64,000 bases of DNA from Nitrospirota bacterium (GTDB lineage: Bacteria > Nitrospirota > UBA9217): assembly GCA_963751455.1 (NCBI GenBank), contig CAVVUN010000009.1:1-64000 (forward strand), read 5' to 3'. Position numbers and translations under genes: made by a program. The notes under the pieces were generated by a model that was not told where the DNA came from, searched no databases, and was given only the letters and a program-made list of their open reading frames with translations. Positions within the stretch are counted from its first letter, which is position 1, and each line of letters opens with the position of its first letter. Shown in pieces: positions 21,777-31,499 of this stretch.

Positions 21777-23144
21777 TCACTTCTGTAGTCCGATTTTTTT
21801 CCGCAGCGTAAGCCTGTTTATGCCCAAAAGCCGTGCCGCTTCCGACTGGTTTTCGCGGGTATGGGAAAGTATGAACTCGAAGACGTGCCGGTCCACTTCG
21901 GCATGGACTTTCTCGTAGACGTTGTTCTCGTTCTTTTCAAGCGCTTTTTTTACATACGGAATGAGCACCGCTGCCATGGCATCCAATCCGTTGTTCTGCA
22001 TACGGGTTGTAGAATCTGCGCCCAGGTCCACGAGGTCCTGCGTGGTGAGATAATCAGTCTTGCAGGTTGCGATCGCCGATCGAAGGGTGTTCTCGAGCTC
22101 ACGGATGTTGCCCGGCCAGTCATGCTCGAGAAGCCGGTCCATGAACGCCTTGGTGACGCCCTTGATCGGCTTTTGTGCCGTGTGGGCGTGACGGTAAAAC
22201 AGACACTGGACGAGCGGCGGTATATCCTTGGTCCGTTCCCTGAGCGGAGGCACATGGATAGAGACAACACGGATGCGGTGGTACAGGTCTTCCCGGAAAG
22301 TGCCTTCCCGCACCATGGCCGCCAGCTCGCGGTTCGTCGCCGATATGACGCGTACGTTCACTTGGACTTCTTTGGTGCTTCCCACGGGATAGAAGGTCTG
22401 CGTCTGCAGGAACCGGAGGAGTTTTCCCTGTACGAGCAGCGGAAGCTCGCCGATCTCGTCGAAGAACACGCATCCTCCGTCAGCGGTTTTAAGCATGCCT
22501 TCTTTCGGGGCCACGGCGCCGGTAAAAGCGCCGCGTTCATACCCGAAGAGCTCCGATTCAAGCAGCGTATCGGGTACGGCCGCGCAGTTGATCACTACGA
22601 ACGGCTTGCCGAAGCGGGATGAGAGCTGTGCGATGGCTTCGGCCACGAGTTCTTTCCCTGTTCCGGTCTCACCCGTAACGAGCACGGGAACTTCAACCTG
22701 GGCAATGCGGGCAACTTTTTCGCAAAGACTCATGACCAGGGAAGAGCGGCCGACGATAACGCAGGTTGCCGCCGGCGCTACCGTGTCCTTCGATATCGTT
22801 ACAGCATGCGCCATTTCTTTTCTGAGTTCCGACAGTTCCCGCAGAGTGCGCTCGATCCGTTCTCTCTTGAGCGGCCGCCGCATGATCTCGTACGCGCCCA
22901 AGGTAGCAGCTTCCATGACCGGTCCGGTCATTTCCCGGCCTGTCACGGCGATTACGAAGGCCTTTTCGCAATAGTCCCTTATCAGCTCCAGGTTTTTAGT
23001 ATCGATGTCCACGAGCACAACATATTCATCGCCGTAAGAAACAGCTTTGCCGCCGGGCTTTGGGAGCTTGTACCCCTTTGGCAACAGGTCAAGAAGCTCT
23101 CTTCTCAGCGTATCATCGTCGGTAAGCACCAGAATTGTGGGCAT
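21777..23144 (-). CDS. sigma54-dependent enhancer-binding protein (atypical receiver, AAA+, Fis HTH)
   Basis: GETGTGKE, ESELFGYERGAFTGA, FFDEIGE, WPGNIRELEN, NQSEAARLLGINR. Confidence 0.95.
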   Translation of the reverse strand: MPTILVLTDDDTLRRELLDLLPKGYKLPKPGGKAVSYGDEYVVLVDIDTKNLELIRDYCEKAFVIAVTGREMTGPVMEAATLGAYEIMRRPLKRERIERTLRELSELRKEMAHAVTISKDTVAPAATCVIVGRSSLVMSLCEKVARIAQVEVPVLVTGETGTGKELVAEAIAQLSSRFGKPFVVINCAAVPDTLLESELFGYERGAFTGAVAPKEGMLKTADGGCVFFDEIGELPLLVQGKLLRFLQTQTFYPVGSTKEVQVNVRVISATNRELAAMVREGTFREDLYHRIRVVSIHVPPLRERTKDIPPLVQCLFYRHAHTAQKPIKGVTKAFMDRLLEHDWPGNIRELENTLRSAIATCKTDYLTTQDLVDLGADSTTRMQNNGLDAMAAVLIPYVKKALEKNENNVYEKVHAEVDRHVFEFILSHTRENQSEAARLLGINRLTLRKKIGLQK

Positions 23145-23233
23145 GTCCGCCTCCTGTAAAAAAACTATACAACCTGTATATATATAAATCAAACGTTATT
23201 TGCAGTGATGGTGCCTGGTGTTACAACTTTACC

Positions 23234-23266
23234 CGTATAATATATGTTCTGTATACAATCTATACA
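23234..23266. promoter_or_regulatory. Putative upstream activator sequence (copy 1)
   Basis: CGTATAATATATGTTCTGTATACAATCTATACA; contains the TGTAT-N7-ATACA palindrome and is similar to 28723-28755. Confidence 0.65.
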
Positions 23267-23328
23267 TAGACAATCGAAAAGAAGAATGGATCAAAAGCTA
23301 ACTAGCTGTTATTTCCCTCATATTTATC

Positions 23329-23344
23329 TGGCACGCATGTTGCG
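23329..23344 (+). promoter_or_regulatory. sigma54 -24/-12 promoter of the dsrC-like/MCP operon
   Basis: TGGCACGCATGTTGC (GG-N10-GC consensus). Confidence 0.85.
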
Positions 23345-23484
23345 TGCAATGCACAAGAACGCGCAGAACACACGGGAGCATTCCGTTATCTTTTTACGGA
23401 ATTGCGGTATTGGCATGGTCCGGTTCAGCTGATTTAAAGTTTTCAGAGTAATTTCCATACCGCGCAACGAAAAGAGGATGAGCA

Positions 23485-23820
23485 ATGGGAACGATTTCTG
23501 TAAAAGGCAGGACCCTTGAAGTCGGCGAGAACGGCTTTCTGGCGAATGTAGACGACTGGAACAAAGACGTAGCAGAGTATTTTGCAGAGAAAGAGGGAAT
23601 TCACATGTCGGAGCAGCACTGGGAGGTGGCGAATTATCTGAACGAGTATTACAAACAATACCAGATCGCCCCTATGGTCAAGATTATCGTGAAGGAACTC
23701 GGCAGAAAACTCGGACCTGAAAAAGGCAATACCCGGTATCTTTACCATCTCTATCCTGCCGGCCCTGCCAGCCAGGCATGCAAGATTGCGGGCCTCCCGA
23801 GCCCGAAGGGCTGTCTATAA
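23485..23820 (+). CDS. DsrC/TusE-family sulfur relay protein (copy 1)
   Basis: ENGFL..DW, HWEV, YLY.LYP.GPA.QACKIAGLPSPKGCL; C-X10-C tail. Confidence 0.93.
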   Translation: MGTISVKGRTLEVGENGFLANVDDWNKDVAEYFAEKEGIHMSEQHWEVANYLNEYYKQYQIAPMVKIIVKELGRKLGPEKGNTRYLYHLYPAGPASQACKIAGLPSPKGCL

Positions 23821-23902
23821 CCATGAAACACTGTTCTGGAACTCATTATGTGATTTTAAAATAATGACGATGGACTAACCGCATTACAGTAATGTTTAAA
23901 AA

Positions 23903-26803
23903 ATGACTATGAAAAAAAGTATTGAACTCAAACTGCTTGCGATCGTGGCGGCCCTGTTTGTCGCCGGTGTCAGTGCCGCCGGTTTTATGGCAGTAGCGAT
24001 ACAGAAAGAAACCTTGTACAGCGTTGCGGAATCAGGCGCGGAAAATATTGCTAACATCATTTTCCAGGACATTGAGACGACCATGCTCGAGGGAAAGGCG
24101 GACATTACCAAACGGATCATCGAGAAAATATCCAGGACCCGCGGGATCGAGCAAATCATCGTACTCAACGCCGAGGGCCGCGAAGCCTTCGGGAAAGATT
24201 CCGCTGCCCGGGAAGAAGCCGCTCTCGCGGAACTGAGTTCAGGCAAGGAAAGACTGCTGAACCGGGACCCATCCCGGCTTGTTTATTATATGCCCTTTAA
24301 GAACGAGGTATCGTGCCGGATGTGCCATGGCGCGGAAAAAACACTGCTGGGGGCGGTAAAGGTCTCGATCACGATCGAAAGGGAATACAGGAAGGCCATG
24401 GCGCTCATAACGATCGTGATCGCCGTCACCGTCGTTGTGTCCCTGATATTCTGCTTCGTGCTCTGGGCGCTGCTGAAGAAGACGATCATCAAACCGGTAA
24501 AGGCGATCGAGACCGCGGCTGCCGGGATCGCCGCCGGCGATCTTTCCTTTGCAATCGGAGCGACAAGCGATGATGAGATCGGCAGAGCGGGCGCCATGCT
24601 GAAAGATTCGTTTCTCACGCAGCAGGGGGTGCTCAAGAGGATCAAGGAGTTATCTCAGCGGATCCTGAGCGTCGTTCACGAGGTCGGGGCAGAGTCCGAA
24701 AAAGTGGTAAAAGGGGCCGAGGCTGAAGCGGATGCGGTGAACAGCATTTCCAGTTCAGTGCAGCAGCTGAACGCTACCTCGGCGGAAGTAGCCGACAACA
24801 CTGAAAAACTTGCTGCTTCGGCCGGAGAAACCTCCGCCTCGATCGAGCAGATGGCATCGAGTATCCAAAGCATCAACGGAAGCATCAGGGACCTGAACGG
24901 CATCGTGGAGTCCACGTCGGCATCCATTGAACAACTCACGGCAGCGGTAAAGGAGGTCGCGGGCAGCGCGGAGAACCTGGCGAGTGCGGCCGAAGACACC
25001 CTCTCGTCGATATCGGAAATTACCACGGCGATCAGGGAAGTCGACGCCGGCGCTGAGGAATCTGCGAGGCTTTCGGAAAAGGTCACGAGCGATGCCGCCA
25101 ATCTCGGCATGGCATCGATTGAAAAGGTGATCGGCGGAATGAAGGACATAGAGGCCTCTGTCCGCAATACATCCGAGTGCATCGCGGTGCTGGGAAGCAG
25201 GTCCCAGGAGATTGAGACGATCTTGAACATCATCGAAAATGTAACCGACGACACGGCGCTGCTTTCTCTGAATGCCAGGATACTGGCGGCGCAGGCAGGA
25301 GAACACGGCAAAGGGTTTGCCGTTGTTGCCGGCGAGATCAGGGACCTTGCAAAAAAAACCGAGATATCCACAAAGGACATTGCGGCCCGTATCGAGGCGG
25401 TCCAGAATGAAGTGAACAACGCCGCTGTGGCAATGCAGAAGGGGATCGCTTCGGTGGAATCCGGGCTGGTGCTGGCCTGGGAGGCGGGGAATGCATTACA
25501 GATGGTTCTGGACAGCTCGAAAAAGTCTTCCGAGATGACCCATGCAATAAAACGCAGCACCGAGGAACAGGCGAAGGCCGCGAAGCTCGTAACGGAATCC
25601 ATGCAATCCATCAGGGACATGATCGATCAGGTGGCAAAGGCCACAGCGGAACAGTCCCGGGGCGTCGTTCTGGTGATGGAGTCCGCCGAAAAGATGAAGG
25701 CCTTGTCCCACCAGGTGACCAAGGCGACCGGGGAGCAGGAAATCAGCGGCAGGCAGATAGCTCTTGCGACGGAAAACGTGTCCGAGCGCAGTCAGCAGAT
25801 ATCGAAGTCTCTCGGGGAGCATAAAAAAGGATCCCAAAACATACTTTCCAGCATAGAAGCGGTAAAAGATATCCCTGTCGAAAACAGAAAACTGGCCTTT
25901 AGAATAAACAAGACCCTCTGGAATCTCGAGAAGGACGCGGAACTTCTGGGTGCCGAGATGGAGCGGTTCAAAATATCGGAACAGAGAGGTCAAGCGCTCC
26001 GGTTCGGCGTCGTTCCTCTGAAAGAGCCGTCGGAGATGTTCAGAAAATTCACTCCGCTTTCCCATTACCTCGGCGTGAAAATCGGGAGGAGGATCGATCT
26101 CAAGGTCGCCATTGATATGGACGGCGCAGTGGAGGACCTTGGAGATGACTGCACGCAGCTTTGTGCCATGGGACCGTCAAACTACCTTGACGCGCACAAA
26201 AAATACGGTGTCAGGGTGATTGCCAAAGCGCTCCGGCGGGGTAAGCCGTTTCATCGGGCAGCGATCGTGGTAAAGGCGGATTCCGGCGTGCGGTTCGTAG
26301 GCGACCTGAAAGGCAAGACCTTTGCTTTTGTGAGTCTGAAATCCGCCACAGGCCATATCGCCCCTCTTGCAGCGCTCAAGGATAAAGGGATGAGCAGCGG
26401 TGACCTTGCGGATTTCCGGTTTCTGGGCAGCCATGACAAGGTTGCCGACGCCGTGCTGTCCGGCGAATTCGACGCAGGTGGCCTGATGGAGGAAACCGCA
26501 TACAAGTATAAAGATAAAGGGCTGCGAATACTCAAATTGTCGCCGGAAGTCCCGGAGTTCAATGTATGCTGCAACCTCTCCGTCGACGAAACGACGCTGA
26601 AGGCAGTCAGGGATGCCCTGGTCGCCCTTGATGTTTCGAAAGCAGAAGACGCAACGGTACTGAAGTCGCTCGGCAAAGACTGCACCGGTTTTGTCGCGGC
26701 AACTGAAAGCGACTATGATATCTTCAGGGAGAAAATCCTTAGCGTGGAGAATGAAGTGAACAGCGAAAGCGGCCTTCCCGCGATGCACGGCGTGCGAGCC
26801 TAA
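23903..26803 (+). CDS. Methyl-accepting chemotaxis protein with periplasmic heme-c sensor, HAMP and C-terminal PhnD-like binding domain
   Basis: TM-CRMCH-TM, HAMP (DDEIG), MCP hairpin LLSLNARILAAQAGEHGKGFAVVAGEIR. C-terminal LRFGVVP...DLKGKTFAF...SATGH...SHDKV..AVLSGEFDAG. Confidence 0.9.
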   Translation: MTMKKSIELKLLAIVAALFVAGVSAAGFMAVAIQKETLYSVAESGAENIANIIFQDIETTMLEGKADITKRIIEKISRTRGIEQIIVLNAEGREAFGKDSAAREEAALAELSSGKERLLNRDPSRLVYYMPFKNEVSCRMCHGAEKTLLGAVKVSITIEREYRKAMALITIVIAVTVVVSLIFCFVLWALLKKTIIKPVKAIETAAAGIAAGDLSFAIGATSDDEIGRAGAMLKDSFLTQQGVLKRIKELSQRILSVVHEVGAESEKVVKGAEAEADAVNSISSSVQQLNATSAEVADNTEKLAASAGETSASIEQMASSIQSINGSIRDLNGIVESTSASIEQLTAAVKEVAGSAENLASAAEDTLSSISEITTAIREVDAGAEESARLSEKVTSDAANLGMASIEKVIGGMKDIEASVRNTSECIAVLGSRSQEIETILNIIENVTDDTALLSLNARILAAQAGEHGKGFAVVAGEIRDLAKKTEISTKDIAARIEAVQNEVNNAAVAMQKGIASVESGLVLAWEAGNALQMVLDSSKKSSEMTHAIKRSTEEQAKAAKLVTESMQSIRDMIDQVAKATAEQSRGVVLVMESAEKMKALSHQVTKATGEQEISGRQIALATENVSERSQQISKSLGEHKKGSQNILSSIEAVKDIPVENRKLAFRINKTLWNLEKDAELLGAEMERFKISEQRGQALRFGVVPLKEPSEMFRKFTPLSHYLGVKIGRRIDLKVAIDMDGAVEDLGDDCTQLCAMGPSNYLDAHKKYGVRVIAKALRRGKPFHRAAIVVKADSGVRFVGDLKGKTFAFVSLKSATGHIAPLAALKDKGMSSGDLADFRFLGSHDKVADAVLSGEFDAGGLMEETAYKYKDKGLRILKLSPEVPEFNVCCNLSVDETTLKAVRDALVALDVSKAEDATVLKSLGKDCTGFVAATESDYDIFREKILSVENEVNSESGLPAMHGVRA

Positions 26804-26858
26804 GATCAGAATCGATCTACAGTCAATTATCGTCTTCTGTGGTCCGTGGAGCTCCCTG

Positions 26859-27863
26859 CTACCGGATCCGGTGCCGTTCTATGAGTTCATCGCCTGCAGG
26901 CGCGGCCAGAACAGGTAAATTCCCGGTTTCGCCGATAATACTGACCTCAACTTCCGGTTGATGCTTCAGGTCCGAGTACCGCGCGCACAAAGAAGCGCCA
27001 AGATCGAGATGTTTTCCCGCGTCAGGTCCCTGGAGCAGCGTGACAGGGCTTCCTGCGTGCTCAACCTGCAACAGTATATCGCCGGGCCTTCGCATCTTTT
27101 CGATCGCGCTGTTCTCGGCCTCGTTCCTTCCGACAATGATTTTGCATCCCGGCGACGGCCTGAAGTGCCGTCCAAGACGAAGAAGGCCGAGGTCTCTGCT
27201 GTCCGGATCGGGGTTATCGCTGAGCAGATCACGCAGGCGCATGGAGTAGATCGGATCGGTCAGCAGGCAGCCGCCGGCGGGAGACGGATAGTCTGTCAAG
27301 CCCAGTTCACGGGCAAGGGCGATCTGAGGTTTTCTGGTTCTCCCGCTTATTGCAAGCAGGCGATTCCTGTCTACTATTCCACTGGCTTCGGGTTTGGTTT
27401 CACGCAAAAGACGGGCGGACAAAGGACGCACCACGAGGCCGCTCAAACCGCTTTCCCTCTCGATGATATCCAGGGTGTCCCTGCGCTGTGACATGGGACG
27501 CTGGCCCAGCACTTCCCCGGTAATAATGAAGTCCGCACCCGTCATCTCCATGAGAGCCCCGGCTTCCCTGAGCATCAGGATGCGGCAGTCGATGCAGGGG
27601 TTCATGTTTTTGCCGTGGCCGTAGTGCGGCTTCTTTACGATCTCTACGAACTTCTGGCCGAGATGGCAGAGTTTGAGGTCGAACCCGAATTGGGCAGCGG
27701 CAGGCGCTCCGTCCCTGGAACAGGACGATGAATCGCTGATATTACATCCGAAATCGGTCAGGAAGGTGACGGCCAGTACCTTGATATCCTGCTTCAGCAT
27801 GACCAGGATTGCGAGAGTACTGTCAAGCCCGCCGGAAAAAAGGGCTACTGCTTTTCGTTCCAT
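26859..27863 (-). CDS. ThiI/MnmA-like PP-loop tRNA thiolation-family protein with DUF814-like C-terminus
   Basis: ALFSGGLDS, NPCIDC, TGEVLGQRPMSQ, GGCLLTD, GRHFR..KIIVGRNE.EN. Confidence 0.85.
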   Translation of the reverse strand: MERKAVALFSGGLDSTLAILVMLKQDIKVLAVTFLTDFGCNISDSSSCSRDGAPAAAQFGFDLKLCHLGQKFVEIVKKPHYGHGKNMNPCIDCRILMLREAGALMEMTGADFIITGEVLGQRPMSQRRDTLDIIERESGLSGLVVRPLSARLLRETKPEASGIVDRNRLLAISGRTRKPQIALARELGLTDYPSPAGGCLLTDPIYSMRLRDLLSDNPDPDSRDLGLLRLGRHFRPSPGCKIIVGRNEAENSAIEKMRRPGDILLQVEHAGSPVTLLQGPDAGKHLDLGASLCARYSDLKHQPEVEVSIIGETGNLPVLAAPAGDELIERHRIR

Positions 27864-28065
27864 TTCTCTCCGTGTGTTCCCAGGGGAATGTTCTATGCGA
27901 ACCCCGGGCTGCTGATATTACCACACTTTTGCCGTGATCCGCTCCGCATTTATAAATTATTGTGTTGGAATGAGGAAGGAGAGAGAAAGAGCGGAGACGC
28001 TCCTTGGGAAGGAGTATCACCGCTTTATACAGAAGGCAGCATTTTTATCGCTTACTTTGCCGATA

Positions 28066-28401
28066 CTACAGGCAGCCGGTCGGTTTTGGCAGCCCTGCGA
28101 TCTTGCATGCCTGCTTGGCAGGTCCTTCAGGAAAGAGCTGCTCGAGATAGCGGGTGTTGCCTTTTTCCGGACCGAATTTTCTTTCGATTTGTCTCACCAG
28201 GATATTGATTATCGGCGCAATCTGGTAACGTCTATAATAGTCGCGGAGGAAATTCACGACTTCCCAGTGCTGTTCAGTCATCGCGATCCCTTCTGCGTTC
28301 GCAAGATGGCTGGCAATTTCGGTGTTCCAGTCGTTTATATTCTGCTGGTATCCGTTCTCGTTTACATCAATTGACGTGCCGTTTACTGAAATGGTTCCCA
28401 T
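28066..28401 (-). CDS. DsrC/TusE-family sulfur relay protein (copy 2)
   Basis: Paralog of 23485-23820; tail QACKIAGLPKPTGCL (C-X10-C). Confidence 0.93.
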   Translation of the reverse strand: MGTISVNGTSIDVNENGYQQNINDWNTEIASHLANAEGIAMTEQHWEVVNFLRDYYRRYQIAPIINILVRQIERKFGPEKGNTRYLEQLFPEGPAKQACKIAGLPKPTGCL

Positions 28402-28722
28402 TCTTATTCCCCTTTCCGTGATGGTGTCAGCCGTAATCTGGTGCGCTGCTCGTTCGATTCTTTCAATGAATCATTTTAAGCTCTCCTGGCCGTATTCGGC
28501 AGAATTCAGCAGTCTCTTGCGCGTTATTGAACGTTCCCCCGCGCGGTTGGTGTTGAAGCATTTTTTAAATTCTATCACCGGCTTAATCAATTTTCAGTAT
28601 GGTCGACGGGAAAAGAATATTTTGTCCGGGGCGAGAGCCCGAAGGCAGTAAATGAGGGCAGGGCTGTTTGAATCCCGCGACTTGCAATCCCCCGGCTCCT
28701 GCCGGAGGGGGCTCCACTAGTA

Positions 28723-28755
28723 TGTATAATATACAGCTTGTATTAATAATACACA
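28723..28755. promoter_or_regulatory. Putative upstream activator sequence (copy 2)
   Basis: TGTATAATATACAGCTTGTATTAATAATACACA; aligns without gaps to 23234-23266. Confidence 0.65.
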
Positions 28756-28903
28756 AAATCCTTTTTTTTTCTGTCTAATTTACTTGCGGGATAGAACTTC
28801 TTGGCATGGCAGAACCAGTTTATAATTCTGAATCCCTGTTTTTACCGCTTGTTATAGCAATATCGATGACACACGTGGATTCAAAACAACTCCTTCAAAC
28901 ATC

Positions 28904-28919
28904 TGGCATGACCGTTGCT
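28904..28919 (+). promoter_or_regulatory. sigma54 -24/-12 promoter of the sulfite-reductase-like gene
   Basis: TGGCATGACCGTTGCT (GG-N10-GC). Confidence 0.8.
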
Positions 28920-29065
28920 ATATAGTGTGCATGTTGCTTCACCTTAGCGAAGGCAGGAAGTGATTTTCCCCCTTTTATCGTGCTTCCTGTCTTCGCAGTT
29001 TCATCCTGCAGCGAAGATGATCAAGGCAGGGGGATGCTGTCATTTATTCAAACTGAGAGGAGTTT

Positions 29066-30220
29066 TTGATGAGCAATCTTGCGGCAGAAGCGCCATCGAA
29101 ATCCAAAATCGATGAGCTGAAGAGGGTTGGGATCATAGCACAGAAACAAAAAGACACTTTTTTGATCCGCCTGAGGACCGTCGGCGGCGGCATGACGGCG
29201 GAGGAATTGAATACGGTAGCCCATGTTACACAGAAGTTCGCCGGCGGCCGGATACACCTCACGACCCGCCAGGCCGTTGAAATTCACAACATCCATGTTG
29301 ATAATCTGCAGGCTGCCCGGGAAGAACTGGAGCGTAACGGCATCGTTCTCGGGGTGTGCGGACCCCGCGGACGCGGTATTGTAGCATGCCCCGGGAGCGC
29401 AACCTGCACATCAGGAATCATTGAAACCAGGGAACTCGCCTCGGAGCTCGATTCCCTCTATTTCCGCGAACAGGCGCCGCACAAGTTCAAGATCGGCATC
29501 TCGGGCTGCGCAAACAACTGCTCGAAACCGATCGAGAACGATGTCGGGATCATGGGAGGGGTGCTGCCGGCGTGGAACAAGGACGCATGCATCTCCTGCA
29601 GACTTTGCGCAAGCATCTGCCCGAGCAGCGCGATCGAACAGAAGGACAAGGACTGTGTCCTCGATACGGAGAAATGCCTTCTCTGCGGGCTCTGCATCAA
29701 TAATTGCCCGACGGCGGCCTGGAAACCGCAAAAAACCGGTTATTCGCTGTATCTCGGCGGGACGATGGGCAAGAGGCCCCGTCTCGGTACGAAGGCCAAA
29801 ACGCTGATCGAATCGAAAGAGGAACTGCTTCGGCATATAAAACGCTCGTTCGAGTATTATCGCGCGCACGGGCTGAAGAAAGAACGCTTCGGCCATACGC
29901 TTGACCGTATTGGGGTGAACCGGGCATTTGAGGCGATATTTTCCGAAAACGGGACGGAAGCGCCTGCCTCGGCGGGCCCGGACACGGGGGCCGCGGCAAG
30001 AAAAAATTTCCTCGATCTCAGGGGCGTATGCTGCCCGCTCAATTTTGTCAAGGCAAAGCTGGCGATGGACAAGATCAAGACCGGAGAAACCATGGAGTTT
30101 TATCTTGACGATGGCGAACCGATCGTCAATGTCACGAGAAGTCTGAAGGATGAAGGCCATCAGGTGCTGCTGGTCACCGCGAAAGAGACGTACTTCGAGC
30201 TGATGGTTGAAAAAAAGTAA
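29066..30220 (+). CDS. Nitrite/sulfite reductase-like siroheme-[4Fe-4S] protein with 2x[4Fe-4S] ferredoxin and C-terminal TusA/SirA domain
   Basis: LTTRQ, ACPGSATC...KFKIGISGCANNC, CISCRLCASIC, CLLCGLCINNC, LDLRGVCCPLNFVKAK. Confidence 0.9.
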   Translation: MMSNLAAEAPSKSKIDELKRVGIIAQKQKDTFLIRLRTVGGGMTAEELNTVAHVTQKFAGGRIHLTTRQAVEIHNIHVDNLQAAREELERNGIVLGVCGPRGRGIVACPGSATCTSGIIETRELASELDSLYFREQAPHKFKIGISGCANNCSKPIENDVGIMGGVLPAWNKDACISCRLCASICPSSAIEQKDKDCVLDTEKCLLCGLCINNCPTAAWKPQKTGYSLYLGGTMGKRPRLGTKAKTLIESKEELLRHIKRSFEYYRAHGLKKERFGHTLDRIGVNRAFEAIFSENGTEAPASAGPDTGAAARKNFLDLRGVCCPLNFVKAKLAMDKIKTGETMEFYLDDGEPIVNVTRSLKDEGHQVLLVTAKETYFELMVEKK

Positions 30221-30413: not shown

Positions 30414-31499
30414 ATGAATCGGACAACAACGCCGGCAACTCCTTTGCCGGAGATATGTGCCAGTACGATTTTCGAGGCGAGCGGCGTGAAGCTGGGTCCC
30501 GGTATCGCGTCCGAGCTCTGGTCCAAGATAATGCGCCATAAATGGCTCATGTCGGAGAAGCTGCGGCGGGACGTCGGCTTTAAAACGGCATGCATCGATT
30601 TTCTCGAAAACATGGATCTCGCCTTGAAAGAATACCTGGAGTATAAGCGCAGGGACGTCCTGAATGAGATGGGCGCAAAGACGGTCGGCAGGGATATGTG
30701 GGACACGATTTCCGATTCCCAGCCGCCGAAGCAATTGATCAATCGAAAAATCATTCTTCCTCTGAAAGAAGAATCTCTTTCGAAAAAACACGGGGTCCGT
30801 TCGCCGAACACGATCATGTTTTTCGGACCTCCGGGAACCGGCAAAACGCATTTTGTAAAAGCAATTGCAGGCATCCTCTCGTGGTGGTATGTGGAAATAC
30901 TGCCAAGTATGCTTACCATAGACGGCGCCGAAAGAATGGGAATCAATCTGCACACGATTCTTGAGAAAGCAAGGACACTGGAAGATGCGGTCGTTTTCAT
31001 AGACGAATTCGACGAAATAGCGGCCAGCCGGAACACCGCGGCCCGGATCGATAAAGGCATCACGAATACGTTTCTGAAGCAGGTACCCCTGTTCAAACAA
31101 GAAGGGAAAAACATATTGCTCGTTTGCGCAACCAACTTTATCAGCCATCTCGACCCTGCTTTGCTGCGGCCGGGTCGCTTCGACTATATCATTCCGGTCG
31201 GCGGCCTGGATGAAGACAGCAGGAAAACCATTCTGGAATACTATCTGCGAAAGCTCAATGCCGGGGAAATCGACAAAGATTTGGTCGTGAAGATGACTTC
31301 GCGATTTACTCCCGCTGACATAGAATATCTGTTTCAGACGGTAGCGCACTATTCCTTCGAGAAGGAGTACGTCGATCGCCGGGACTACAAGGTTACGACC
31401 GAAACGTTCATTCAGATATTGCCCAGGATGAGGCCTTCTTTGACCGAAGAGATCATCGACGACTTTAAGAAAGACAGCATTACCTATTCCAGAATGTGA
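30414..31499 (+). CDS. AAA+ ATPase with small N-terminal helical domain
   Basis: Walker A GPPGTGKT, Walker B VFIDEFD, SRH LDPALLRPGRFD. Confidence 0.88.
   Translation: MNRTTTPATPLPEICASTIFEASGVKLGPGIASELWSKIMRHKWLMSEKLRRDVGFKTACIDFLENMDLALKEYLEYKRRDVLNEMGAKTVGRDMWDTISDSQPPKQLINRKIILPLKEESLSKKHGVRSPNTIMFFGPPGTGKTHFVKAIAGILSWWYVEILPSMLTIDGAERMGINLHTILEKARTLEDAVVFIDEFDEIAASRNTAARIDKGITNTFLKQVPLFKQEGKNILLVCATNFISHLDPALLRPGRFDYIIPVGGLDEDSRKTILEYYLRKLNAGEIDKDLVVKMTSRFTPADIEYLFQTVAHYSFEKEYVDRRDYKVTTETFIQILPRMRPSLTEEIIDDFKKDSITYSRM

Follow-up and report, generated by a model that had tools for sequence, protein, structure and literature searches.

A candidate sigma54-dependent sulfur-supply regulon built around a Dsr-like sulfite reductase–TusA fusion in a sulfate-reducing Nitrospirota bacterium

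The DNA analyzed here—the window—spans 64,000 nucleotides (positions 1 to 64,000, forward strand) of contig CAVVUN010000009.1 from the Nitrospirota assembly GCA_963751455.1 (lineage UBA9217). Our analysis centers on a segment in which genes for a sigma54 activator, two DsrC-like proteins, a chemoreceptor, a ThiI-like protein and a sulfite reductase fused to TusA are arranged around two sigma54 promoters (Table 1). The host genome (G000; 5.7 Mb in 15 contigs) is scored as 100% complete with 5% contamination; handles with G, L and C denote genomes, loci and contigs of the host, respectively. A preliminary description of this segment had proposed a single module linking sulfur relay, sulfite reduction and chemotaxis. 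Its six genes were all confirmed in place by domain and family profile matches, and both of its sigma54 promoters were recovered; in a synteny survey, however, the six-gene block was not kept as a block. The conserved core consists only of the activator and the group III Dsr-like sulfite reductase–TusA fusion, so that the segment is likely not a conserved sulfur–chemotaxis module, and its DsrC and ThiI-like duplicates have likely been recruited in a patchy manner.

Table 1. Genes and predicted regulatory features of the segment (window coordinates)
Feature	Position	Strand	Remarks
sigma54 enhancer-binding protein	21777..23144	-	455 amino acids; receiver-like degenerate N-terminus, AAA+, Fis-type helix-turn-helix (HTH); Nitrospirota-specific clade
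Predicted enhancer, upstream activating sequence (UAS) 1	23155..23192	.	pair of 17-bp palindromes with 3-bp spacer; sigma54 box 174 bp downstream
Extra perfect 17-bp half-site	23250..23266	.	79 bp before sigma54 box; half-site score 18.1
sigma54 -24/-12 promoter P1	23329..23344	+	exact match; 1st of 39 strict boxes for upstream UAS
dsrC1	23485..23820	+	DsrC duplicate, C99 and C110; 74% identical to canonical dsrC on C2
Heme-c sensor (CxxCH), HAMP, methyl-accepting chemotaxis protein (MCP) and phosphonate-binding-like receptor	23903..26803	+	82 bp after dsrC1
Second ThiI-like PP-loop + NFACT-R (DUF814) copy	26859..27863	-	predicted tRNA sulfurtransferase; NFACT-R_2
dsrC2	28066..28401	-	DsrC duplicate, both cysteines, AGLPKPTGC motif; 66% identical to canonical dsrC
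Predicted enhancer UAS 2	28719..28756	.	185 bp before P2; position weight matrix (PWM) score 28.0, second in genome
sigma54 -24/-12 promoter P2	28904..28919	+	1 mismatch; 2nd of 39 strict boxes for upstream UAS
Conserved leader hairpin	28947..28996	+	long stem, C/U-rich loop, 5' of reductase–TusA; no Rfam match
Group III Dsr-like (Fsr-C/AsrC-type) siroheme sulfite reductase–TusA fusion	29069..30220	+	two extra [4Fe-4S] motifs, invariant C322

The fusion protein combines NIR_SIR_ferr and NIR_SIR domains with two [4Fe-4S] motifs and a TusA domain, the last identified by a PF01206 match of 64 bits and an invariant CP motif (C322-P323). Across 64 homologues, the cysteines C107/C113 (Cx5C) and C147/C151 (Cx3C) and two CxxCxxCxxxC motifs are invariant; R34, R67, R102, K139 and K141 do not vary either and correspond in the alignment to basic residues in Fsr, making them candidate active-site positions, subgroup d of the group III proteins being characterized by four sulfite-binding Arg/Lys. 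Among solved structures, Fsr is the nearest, matched through its sulfite reductase half (E 2.5e-44). In the accessible text of PMC3448663, group III Dsr-LP proteins (IIId, the C-terminal half of Fsr, and AsrC) are half-size siroheme enzymes in which the siroheme-[4Fe-4S] cysteines—the coupled-cluster motif—are accompanied by two further [4Fe-4S] motifs, a layout that the window protein shares; unlike them, it carries a C-terminal TusA fusion, has a dedicated sigma54 activator and falls below the AsrC cut-off (TIGR02912; 135.4 vs 324.1 bits). A group IIId Dsr-LP of M. maripaludis supports growth when sulfite is the only source of sulfur and also confers sulfite resistance, according to the available portion of 10.1101/2024.03.05.583561. 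Moreover, Fsr is described in the available portion of PMC10229431 as releasing sulfide directly and as having buried sirohemes, unlike DsrAB, and these features would argue against docking of DsrC on the reductase and for transfer via TusA. A complex prediction with a reductase–TusA dimer and DsrC1 scored 0.00, which is evidence neither way.

The activator gene starts with the ATG at position 23144 and has AGGAGG as its ribosome site; its product matches Sigma54_activat (E 4e-66) and HTH_8; with intact GAFTGA and Walker A/B motifs and the HTH present, it has the features of a sigma54-dependent bacterial enhancer-binding protein. A profile search gave no Response_reg match, and the receiver-like region retains Asp and Thr and has Arg for Lys at what we take to be the canonical receiver positions. 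Cysteines also mark the beginning of the AAA+ domain in this family (residues 129, 142 and 188), C142 being invariant and C129 nearly so, and a redox or persulfide sensing site is possible there. Within Nitrospirota, the clade comprises 31 loci at 54–78% identity, and the activator was counted in 27 of 63 same-family genomes, one further contig-end copy in G018 having been missed by that count. The accessible text of PMC8359166 describes a comparable protein, OrpR of Desulfovibrio vulgaris, as a one-component sigma54 activator found in a sulfate reducer and governing a regulon of two promoters; OrpR senses redox via an Fe-S PAS domain, whereas the window activator has a degenerate receiver instead. 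In the portions available, PMC4641369, PMC8359166 and PMC10504309 describe systems other than this regulon, and the accessible main text of the D. vulgaris sigma54 regulome (PMC4641369) contains no occurrence of cysteine, sulfite or dsrC. A literature search, with supplements and most subscription papers outside its reach, found no description of the activator's regulon. Sulfur-responsive sigma54 activators of sulfur genes do exist in other bacteria, namely SfnR (Pseudomonas putida) and CdsR (Clostridioides difficile); by their descriptions, they would be set apart from the window activator by other targets, another motif and another lineage.

Taken by themselves, sigma54-box matches are no more frequent in the window than expected by chance (three in 64 kb; mean 4.4), and none was seen upstream of dsrC2 on the strand of that gene. 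A motif is indeed shared upstream of both promoters, as previously proposed, but its delimitation to 33 bp was wrong: the true element is a 38-bp tandem palindrome. The pairwise 33-nt resemblance alone is not significant, because the best ungapped matches between the two upstream regions reach 21–22 of 33 positions and 99 of 200 local-composition shuffles reach at least 21; the 33-bp motif is also absent among the 20 direct-repeat families listed by the repeat finder. The 38-bp element, by contrast with its earlier delimitation, is present in all 34 orthologous Nitrospirota activator upstream regions used, with two copies of the consensus TGTATA-N5-TATACA 3 bp apart. A downstream sigma54 box accompanies 27 of these 34 training sites, at a distance of 86–90 bp in 22 cases, 78 bp in three and farther in two; among loci outside training, after removal of four loci duplicating training contigs, 18 of 21 boxed sites lie at 86–89 bp. 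A PWM trained on the 34 orthologue loci, with the window excluded, gave three hits of at least 22 in the 5.7-Mb genome—at 23155 (40.4), at 28719 (28.0) and a third (22.8) without a sigma54 box. When the 39 strict sigma54 boxes of the genome were ranked by upstream UAS, the window pair came first and second, the third scoring 10.7, and the half-site at 23250 proved to be the best phased half-site among these boxes, fitting the 78-bp spacing class of the orthologues. With -24/-12 boxes, a conserved palindromic UAS at fixed spacing and rpoN in the genome, the arrangement has the hallmarks of a sigma54 regulon, and the activator likely binds the UAS and activates P1 and P2, as judged from sequence. 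A stricter enhancer-plus-promoter pattern, run over 41 genomes, returned only two known sites and missed the window, being too strict for regulon mapping. On its reverse strand, UAS 1 also holds a sigma70-like -35/-10 pair directed at the activator gene (sigma70 scan), and UAS 2 a weaker one directed at dsrC2; the position of such a promoter within the element suggests autorepression. A sigma70 promoter by itself does not fully account for the motif, since the spacer positions are conserved and the distance to the sigma54 box is fixed.

Among the 20 same-family genomes with a reductase–TusA gene, the activator is directly divergent from it in 15, and split from it by an insert in three; in the remaining two the locus breaks at a contig end. 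In the three split relatives, the activator lies within ~10 kb of the reductase and the element is duplicated at both ends, as in the window. Genes found in or beside element-driven units of relatives are cysK, metY, metX, metW, nifS, nifU, cysH, thiF, JAB, ThiS-like, tusA and dsrE, and the cysK, metY/X/W, nifSU, cysH and thiF/JAB neighbors point to sulfur assimilation. We consider it probable—at odds of roughly two in three—that the segment belongs to an assimilatory sigma54 sulfur-supply regulon with the reductase–TusA fusion as its core, DsrC and ThiI-like proteins as accessories and the chemoreceptor as a passenger. Building on the observed genes, motif, spacing to the sigma54 boxes and neighborhoods in relatives, we infer a series of steps. 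The activator would bind the 17-bp palindromes as tandem dimers and open P1 and P2, the signal being, at a guess, low reduced-sulfur status; it would also repress its own gene, and possibly dsrC2-thiI, because its site overlaps the opposite-strand sigma70-like promoter. The reductase would reduce sulfite, stemming from AprAB here and from CysH in some relatives, to sulfide or a TusA-bound persulfide, and the sulfur would then pass to CysK/MetY, NifS/U and ThiI+NFACT-R, optionally carried by the DsrC duplicates, which would stand apart from the respiratory DsrAB/DsrMK cycle. The layout of the window could have arisen when a 5.5-kb insert split a divergent activator–reductase pair with the enhancer kept on both sides, placing dsrC1 and the receptor under P1. 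New here are the DsrC duplicates in the activator–reductase unit, the second ThiI+NFACT-R copy tracking this unit and a covarying leader hairpin.

Both DsrC duplicates match PF04358 and exceed the TIGR03342 cut-off. In the accessible text of PMC8477390, two conserved C-terminal cysteines distinguish DsrC from TusE/RspA, and both duplicates have them (C99 and C110); by genomic context, an association with DsrAB/DsrMK holds for neither, only the canonical copy lying in the dsr operon on C2. The duplicates resemble the DsrC of the DsrAB/DsrMKJOP pathway, as portrayed in the available parts of PMC8477390, PMC10229431 and PMC10504309, in fold family, length and both C-terminal cysteines, and the AGLPKPTG-C motif given in the accessible account of DiSCo is present in dsrC2 and differs at two positions in dsrC1. 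They differ from the pathway protein in lying outside the dsr operon, in their linkage to assimilation genes and in an about 20-fold relaxed ratio of nonsynonymous to synonymous substitution rates (dN/dS), with pairwise values of ~0.2–0.26 among most linked duplicates vs ~0.01 among canonical copies at synonymous sites near saturation. Their best matches are at 77% (dsrC1) and 68% (dsrC2) identity, with no close orthologue; canonical dsrC copies of this clade are 91–98% identical to that on C2. A first set of 36 Nitrospirota activator loci contained no dsrC near the activator, a result overturned by a wider locus set: linked duplicates were found among the 20 reductase-bearing relatives, three intact and three decayed. 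The intact copies occur in the arrangements reductase-cysK-dsrC (G054), reductase-usp-cysK-metY-metX-metW-hydrolase-dsrC-nifU (G047) and metY-metX-metW-hydrolase-thiI-dsrC-nifS (G041). Furthermore, metagenome contig L197 carries a duplicate divergent from the reductase, the element preceding the box by 88 bp, and in G077 and G078 a more distant DsrC-family gene ends an element-driven thiF/JAB/tusA operon. A metagenome scan with dsrC1 placed 79 of 80 loci outside any linkage to the unit, nearly all of them in dsr gene clusters. Direct sulfur exchange between TusA and DsrC of cable bacteria has been reported in vitro, according to the accessible text of PMC13293266.

The ThiI-like protein contains the PP-loop motif SGGxDS, CxxC, an internal Cys, GRxRxxQ and a C-terminal NFACT-R domain. 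These motifs, and the association with TusA and a cysteine desulfurase, are those of the predicted ThiI+NFACT-R pathway to 4-thiouridine with TusA/IscS outlined in the available text of PMC4075521, from which the window copy differs as a second paralogue tied to the regulon and the DsrC duplicates. It is 46% identical to the housekeeping copy on C10, and most relatives have a housekeeping ThiI+NFACT-R at 44–49% identity to it. A second copy at 59–80% identity exists in 10 of 63 relatives, eight of which have the activator (base rate 27/63), and adjoins the enhancer or activator in four relatives and a metY-metX-metW-dsrC-nifS cluster in one. The host carries two near-duplicate housekeeping copies (C10:7130-7960 and C15:1574461-1575211), one of them frameshifted, for which the 5% contamination or redundancy in the assembly may be responsible.

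The chemoreceptor comprises a PF21563 heme-c sensor, HAMP, MCPsignal and a C-terminal Phosphonate-bd domain, the last absent from the preliminary description. Heme-c sensors in Geobacter have a gas-sensing role. The receptor resembles the Geobacter heme-c PAS-like chemoreceptor sensors (PDB 3b42 and 3b47) in its periplasmic CxxCH sensor and PF21563 match, and differs from them in the additional phosphonate-binding-like domain; several MCPs of the host genome have such C-terminal domains. Because only 82 bp separate it from dsrC1 and no terminator-like site is predicted between the two, the receptor is probably on the P1 transcript. This proximity favors an integrated module that would produce sulfane sulfur and couple sulfur status to motility via DsrC1 and the heme-c chemoreceptor, and 16 CheW matches and three PilT matches over cut-off in the host genome would make a pilus-linked output possible. 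We nevertheless regard such coupling as quite improbable, given the distribution of the receptor. The 36 first and 36 later activator loci have no orthologous heme-c receptor nearby, the weak 27–29% matches at the first 36 being confined to the C-terminal binding domain, and the receptor is found at no activator or reductase locus and at none of the 80 dsrC1-like metagenome loci. At 29 related-receptor loci—a set that leaves out the three closest homologues (77–78% identical)—dsrC, the enhancer and strict sigma54 boxes are all missing within 1.5 kb. Its sensor region is matched in none of the 63 same-family genomes at E 1e-40, whereas the architecture is common in other Nitrospirota families (48/400 genomes). 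Moreover, Flagellin_N and FliG_C had no match in the host genome, which gives no indication of a flagellar apparatus. The chemoreceptor is likely a local insertion or passenger, not conserved here; from the dedicated sulfur module once proposed, the sigma54 activator with its shared enhancer and the sulfur-relay theme (reductase–TusA, DsrC duplicates, ThiI-like protein) survive, whereas the coupling to motility does not.

The reductase might alternatively serve to clear excess sulfite, with the DsrC duplicates buffering persulfide or backing up DsrAB. The sulfite resistance given by the M. maripaludis Dsr-LP in the accessible account (10.1101/2024.03.05.583561), the retention in both duplicates of the two cysteines used by DsrAB, and the presence of dsrAB and aprA in a host that should already produce sulfide when respiring are consistent with detoxification of sulfite or reactive sulfur. 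Such a role seems unlikely, however, as the recurring operon partners are biosynthetic, CysH would produce sulfite and not remove it, and no enhancer hit was found in the dsr operon region. Another reading takes the activator and reductase–TusA as the sole functional unit and the DsrC duplicates and second ThiI-like gene as drifting, dispensable hitch-hikers. Frameshifts or truncations affect three of the six linked duplicates in relatives, dsrC1 and dsrC2 stand apart from any close orthologue, and DsrC trees neither showed nor rejected one common origin for the linked copies (approximately unbiased test, AU p 0.57). Yet dN/dS is well below 1, both cysteines are retained in every intact copy, and four genera and one metagenome contig share this placement; we give pure hitch-hiking little credence. 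Conversely, the DsrC duplicates could be dedicated sulfur acceptors of a homodimeric Dsr-like reductase–TusA, with a new sigma54 activator in control, the leader RNA acting as a switch and, in this lineage, the system also setting the level of a heme gas-sensing receptor. This proposal is doubtful; if true, it would imply that DsrAB/DsrC-style chemistry was re-routed from respiration to biosynthesis, and would provide a living model of a pre-DsrAB reductase with DsrC.

Several observations weigh against the assimilatory sulfur-supply regulon that we favor. The decayed copies in G050, G063 and G064 make up half of the linked DsrC duplicates of relatives. No duplicate was seen nearby in 14 of the 20 reductase-bearing relatives, although in some of these the contig stops short, and another five DsrC duplicates with two cysteines group in a clade of their own that shows no connection to the regulon. 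In the host genome, CysH has no match, and cysK, metY and nifS are located elsewhere, without an enhancer scoring at least 22. The distance between full enhancer and box in the window is 174 and 185 bp, vs the usual 88 bp, a spacing of 170–221 bp being found in four other loci too, and the overlapping sigma70-like promoter could explain part of the motif conservation. Outside the family, the commonest divergent partner of the activator is an unannotated ~115-aa (amino acid) protein and not a sulfur gene. Finally, the compared genomes are kin and not independent samples.

Two of the protein groups just named have features of their own. The separate DsrC clade (L119, L256, L257, L258 and L259) has an extra Cys in a YPCGP motif and is unlinked to dsrAB. 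The ~115-aa protein, present in many Nitrospirota loci (L032-L055, e.g., L053:9487-9840, minus strand), is sigma54-driven and has a conserved N-terminal Cys; it gave no NCBIfam match at 1e-12 and, for one member, no Pfam match at 1e-5, and no copy was found in the host genome.

The leader of the reductase gene folds with a z of -6.0. In an alignment of 18 leaders, which were selected and trimmed by the analyst around the predicted stem, 92% of the cells pair and two-sided changes occur in 12 of 18 pairs, a result matched by none of 500 shuffles, and slid controls gave 37–51% pairing. Altogether, 22 leaders were examined, one without a called box and three with other folds or lengths being omitted. 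A model of the hairpin gave 17 strong hits in 64 genomes, one of which (G068) was outside training; since all 17 lie 5' of the reductase gene, a dispersed repeat was rejected. Stabilization of the 5' end and pairing of the loop with the ribosome site are two possible roles of the hairpin, each of them a guess.

At the level of the genome, the host is a sulfate-reducing bacterium. The absence of dsrAB noted in the preliminary description holds within the window only, because contig C2 contains a full dsr operon (dsrA-B-D-N-C-H/E/F-like-T-M-K-J-O) with the canonical dsrC; aprA is present as well. Both dsrA (C2:327010-328189) and aprA (C8:14886-16840) are broken across reading frames, probably owing to assembly indels. 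The dsrH/E/F-like genes follow the canonical dsrC (L009:14284-15503, on C2) in a host of the reductive type, and may be compared with the DsrEFH type II of the accessible text of PMC13293266.

Sulfate-reducing Nitrospirota are usually assumed to have no need for a separate assimilatory route, and for uncultured members of this group the segment provides a predicted regulator of sulfur supply, with a predicted binding site and set of genes. It also suggests a testable role for additional dsrC copies with two cysteines, which may be scored as respiratory DsrC by marker-based tools. The pairing of a Dsr-LP–TusA fusion with a DsrC duplicate would constitute a compact natural system in which to ask whether DsrC can serve a reductase other than DsrAB, and the leader hairpin adds a candidate cis-regulatory RNA.

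Two further arrangements were observed. At L252 (9409-13996) and L253, an enhancer-driven operon contains metY and genes for a RuBisCO-like protein, a hydrolase and a carrier of the ThiS/SAMP-like kind; it is followed by a second enhancer-driven operon, which holds metZ-like, thiF, JAB, tusA and dsrC-like genes. The thiocarboxylate methionine route of Wolinella, in which sulfite reductase is clustered with ThiS/ThiF/JAB/MetY genes, resembles these two loci. In the window itself, a stand-alone AAA ATPase with a weak DUF4032-like N-terminus is encoded just 3' of the reductase gene (30414-31499), an adjacency that is not conserved in relatives.

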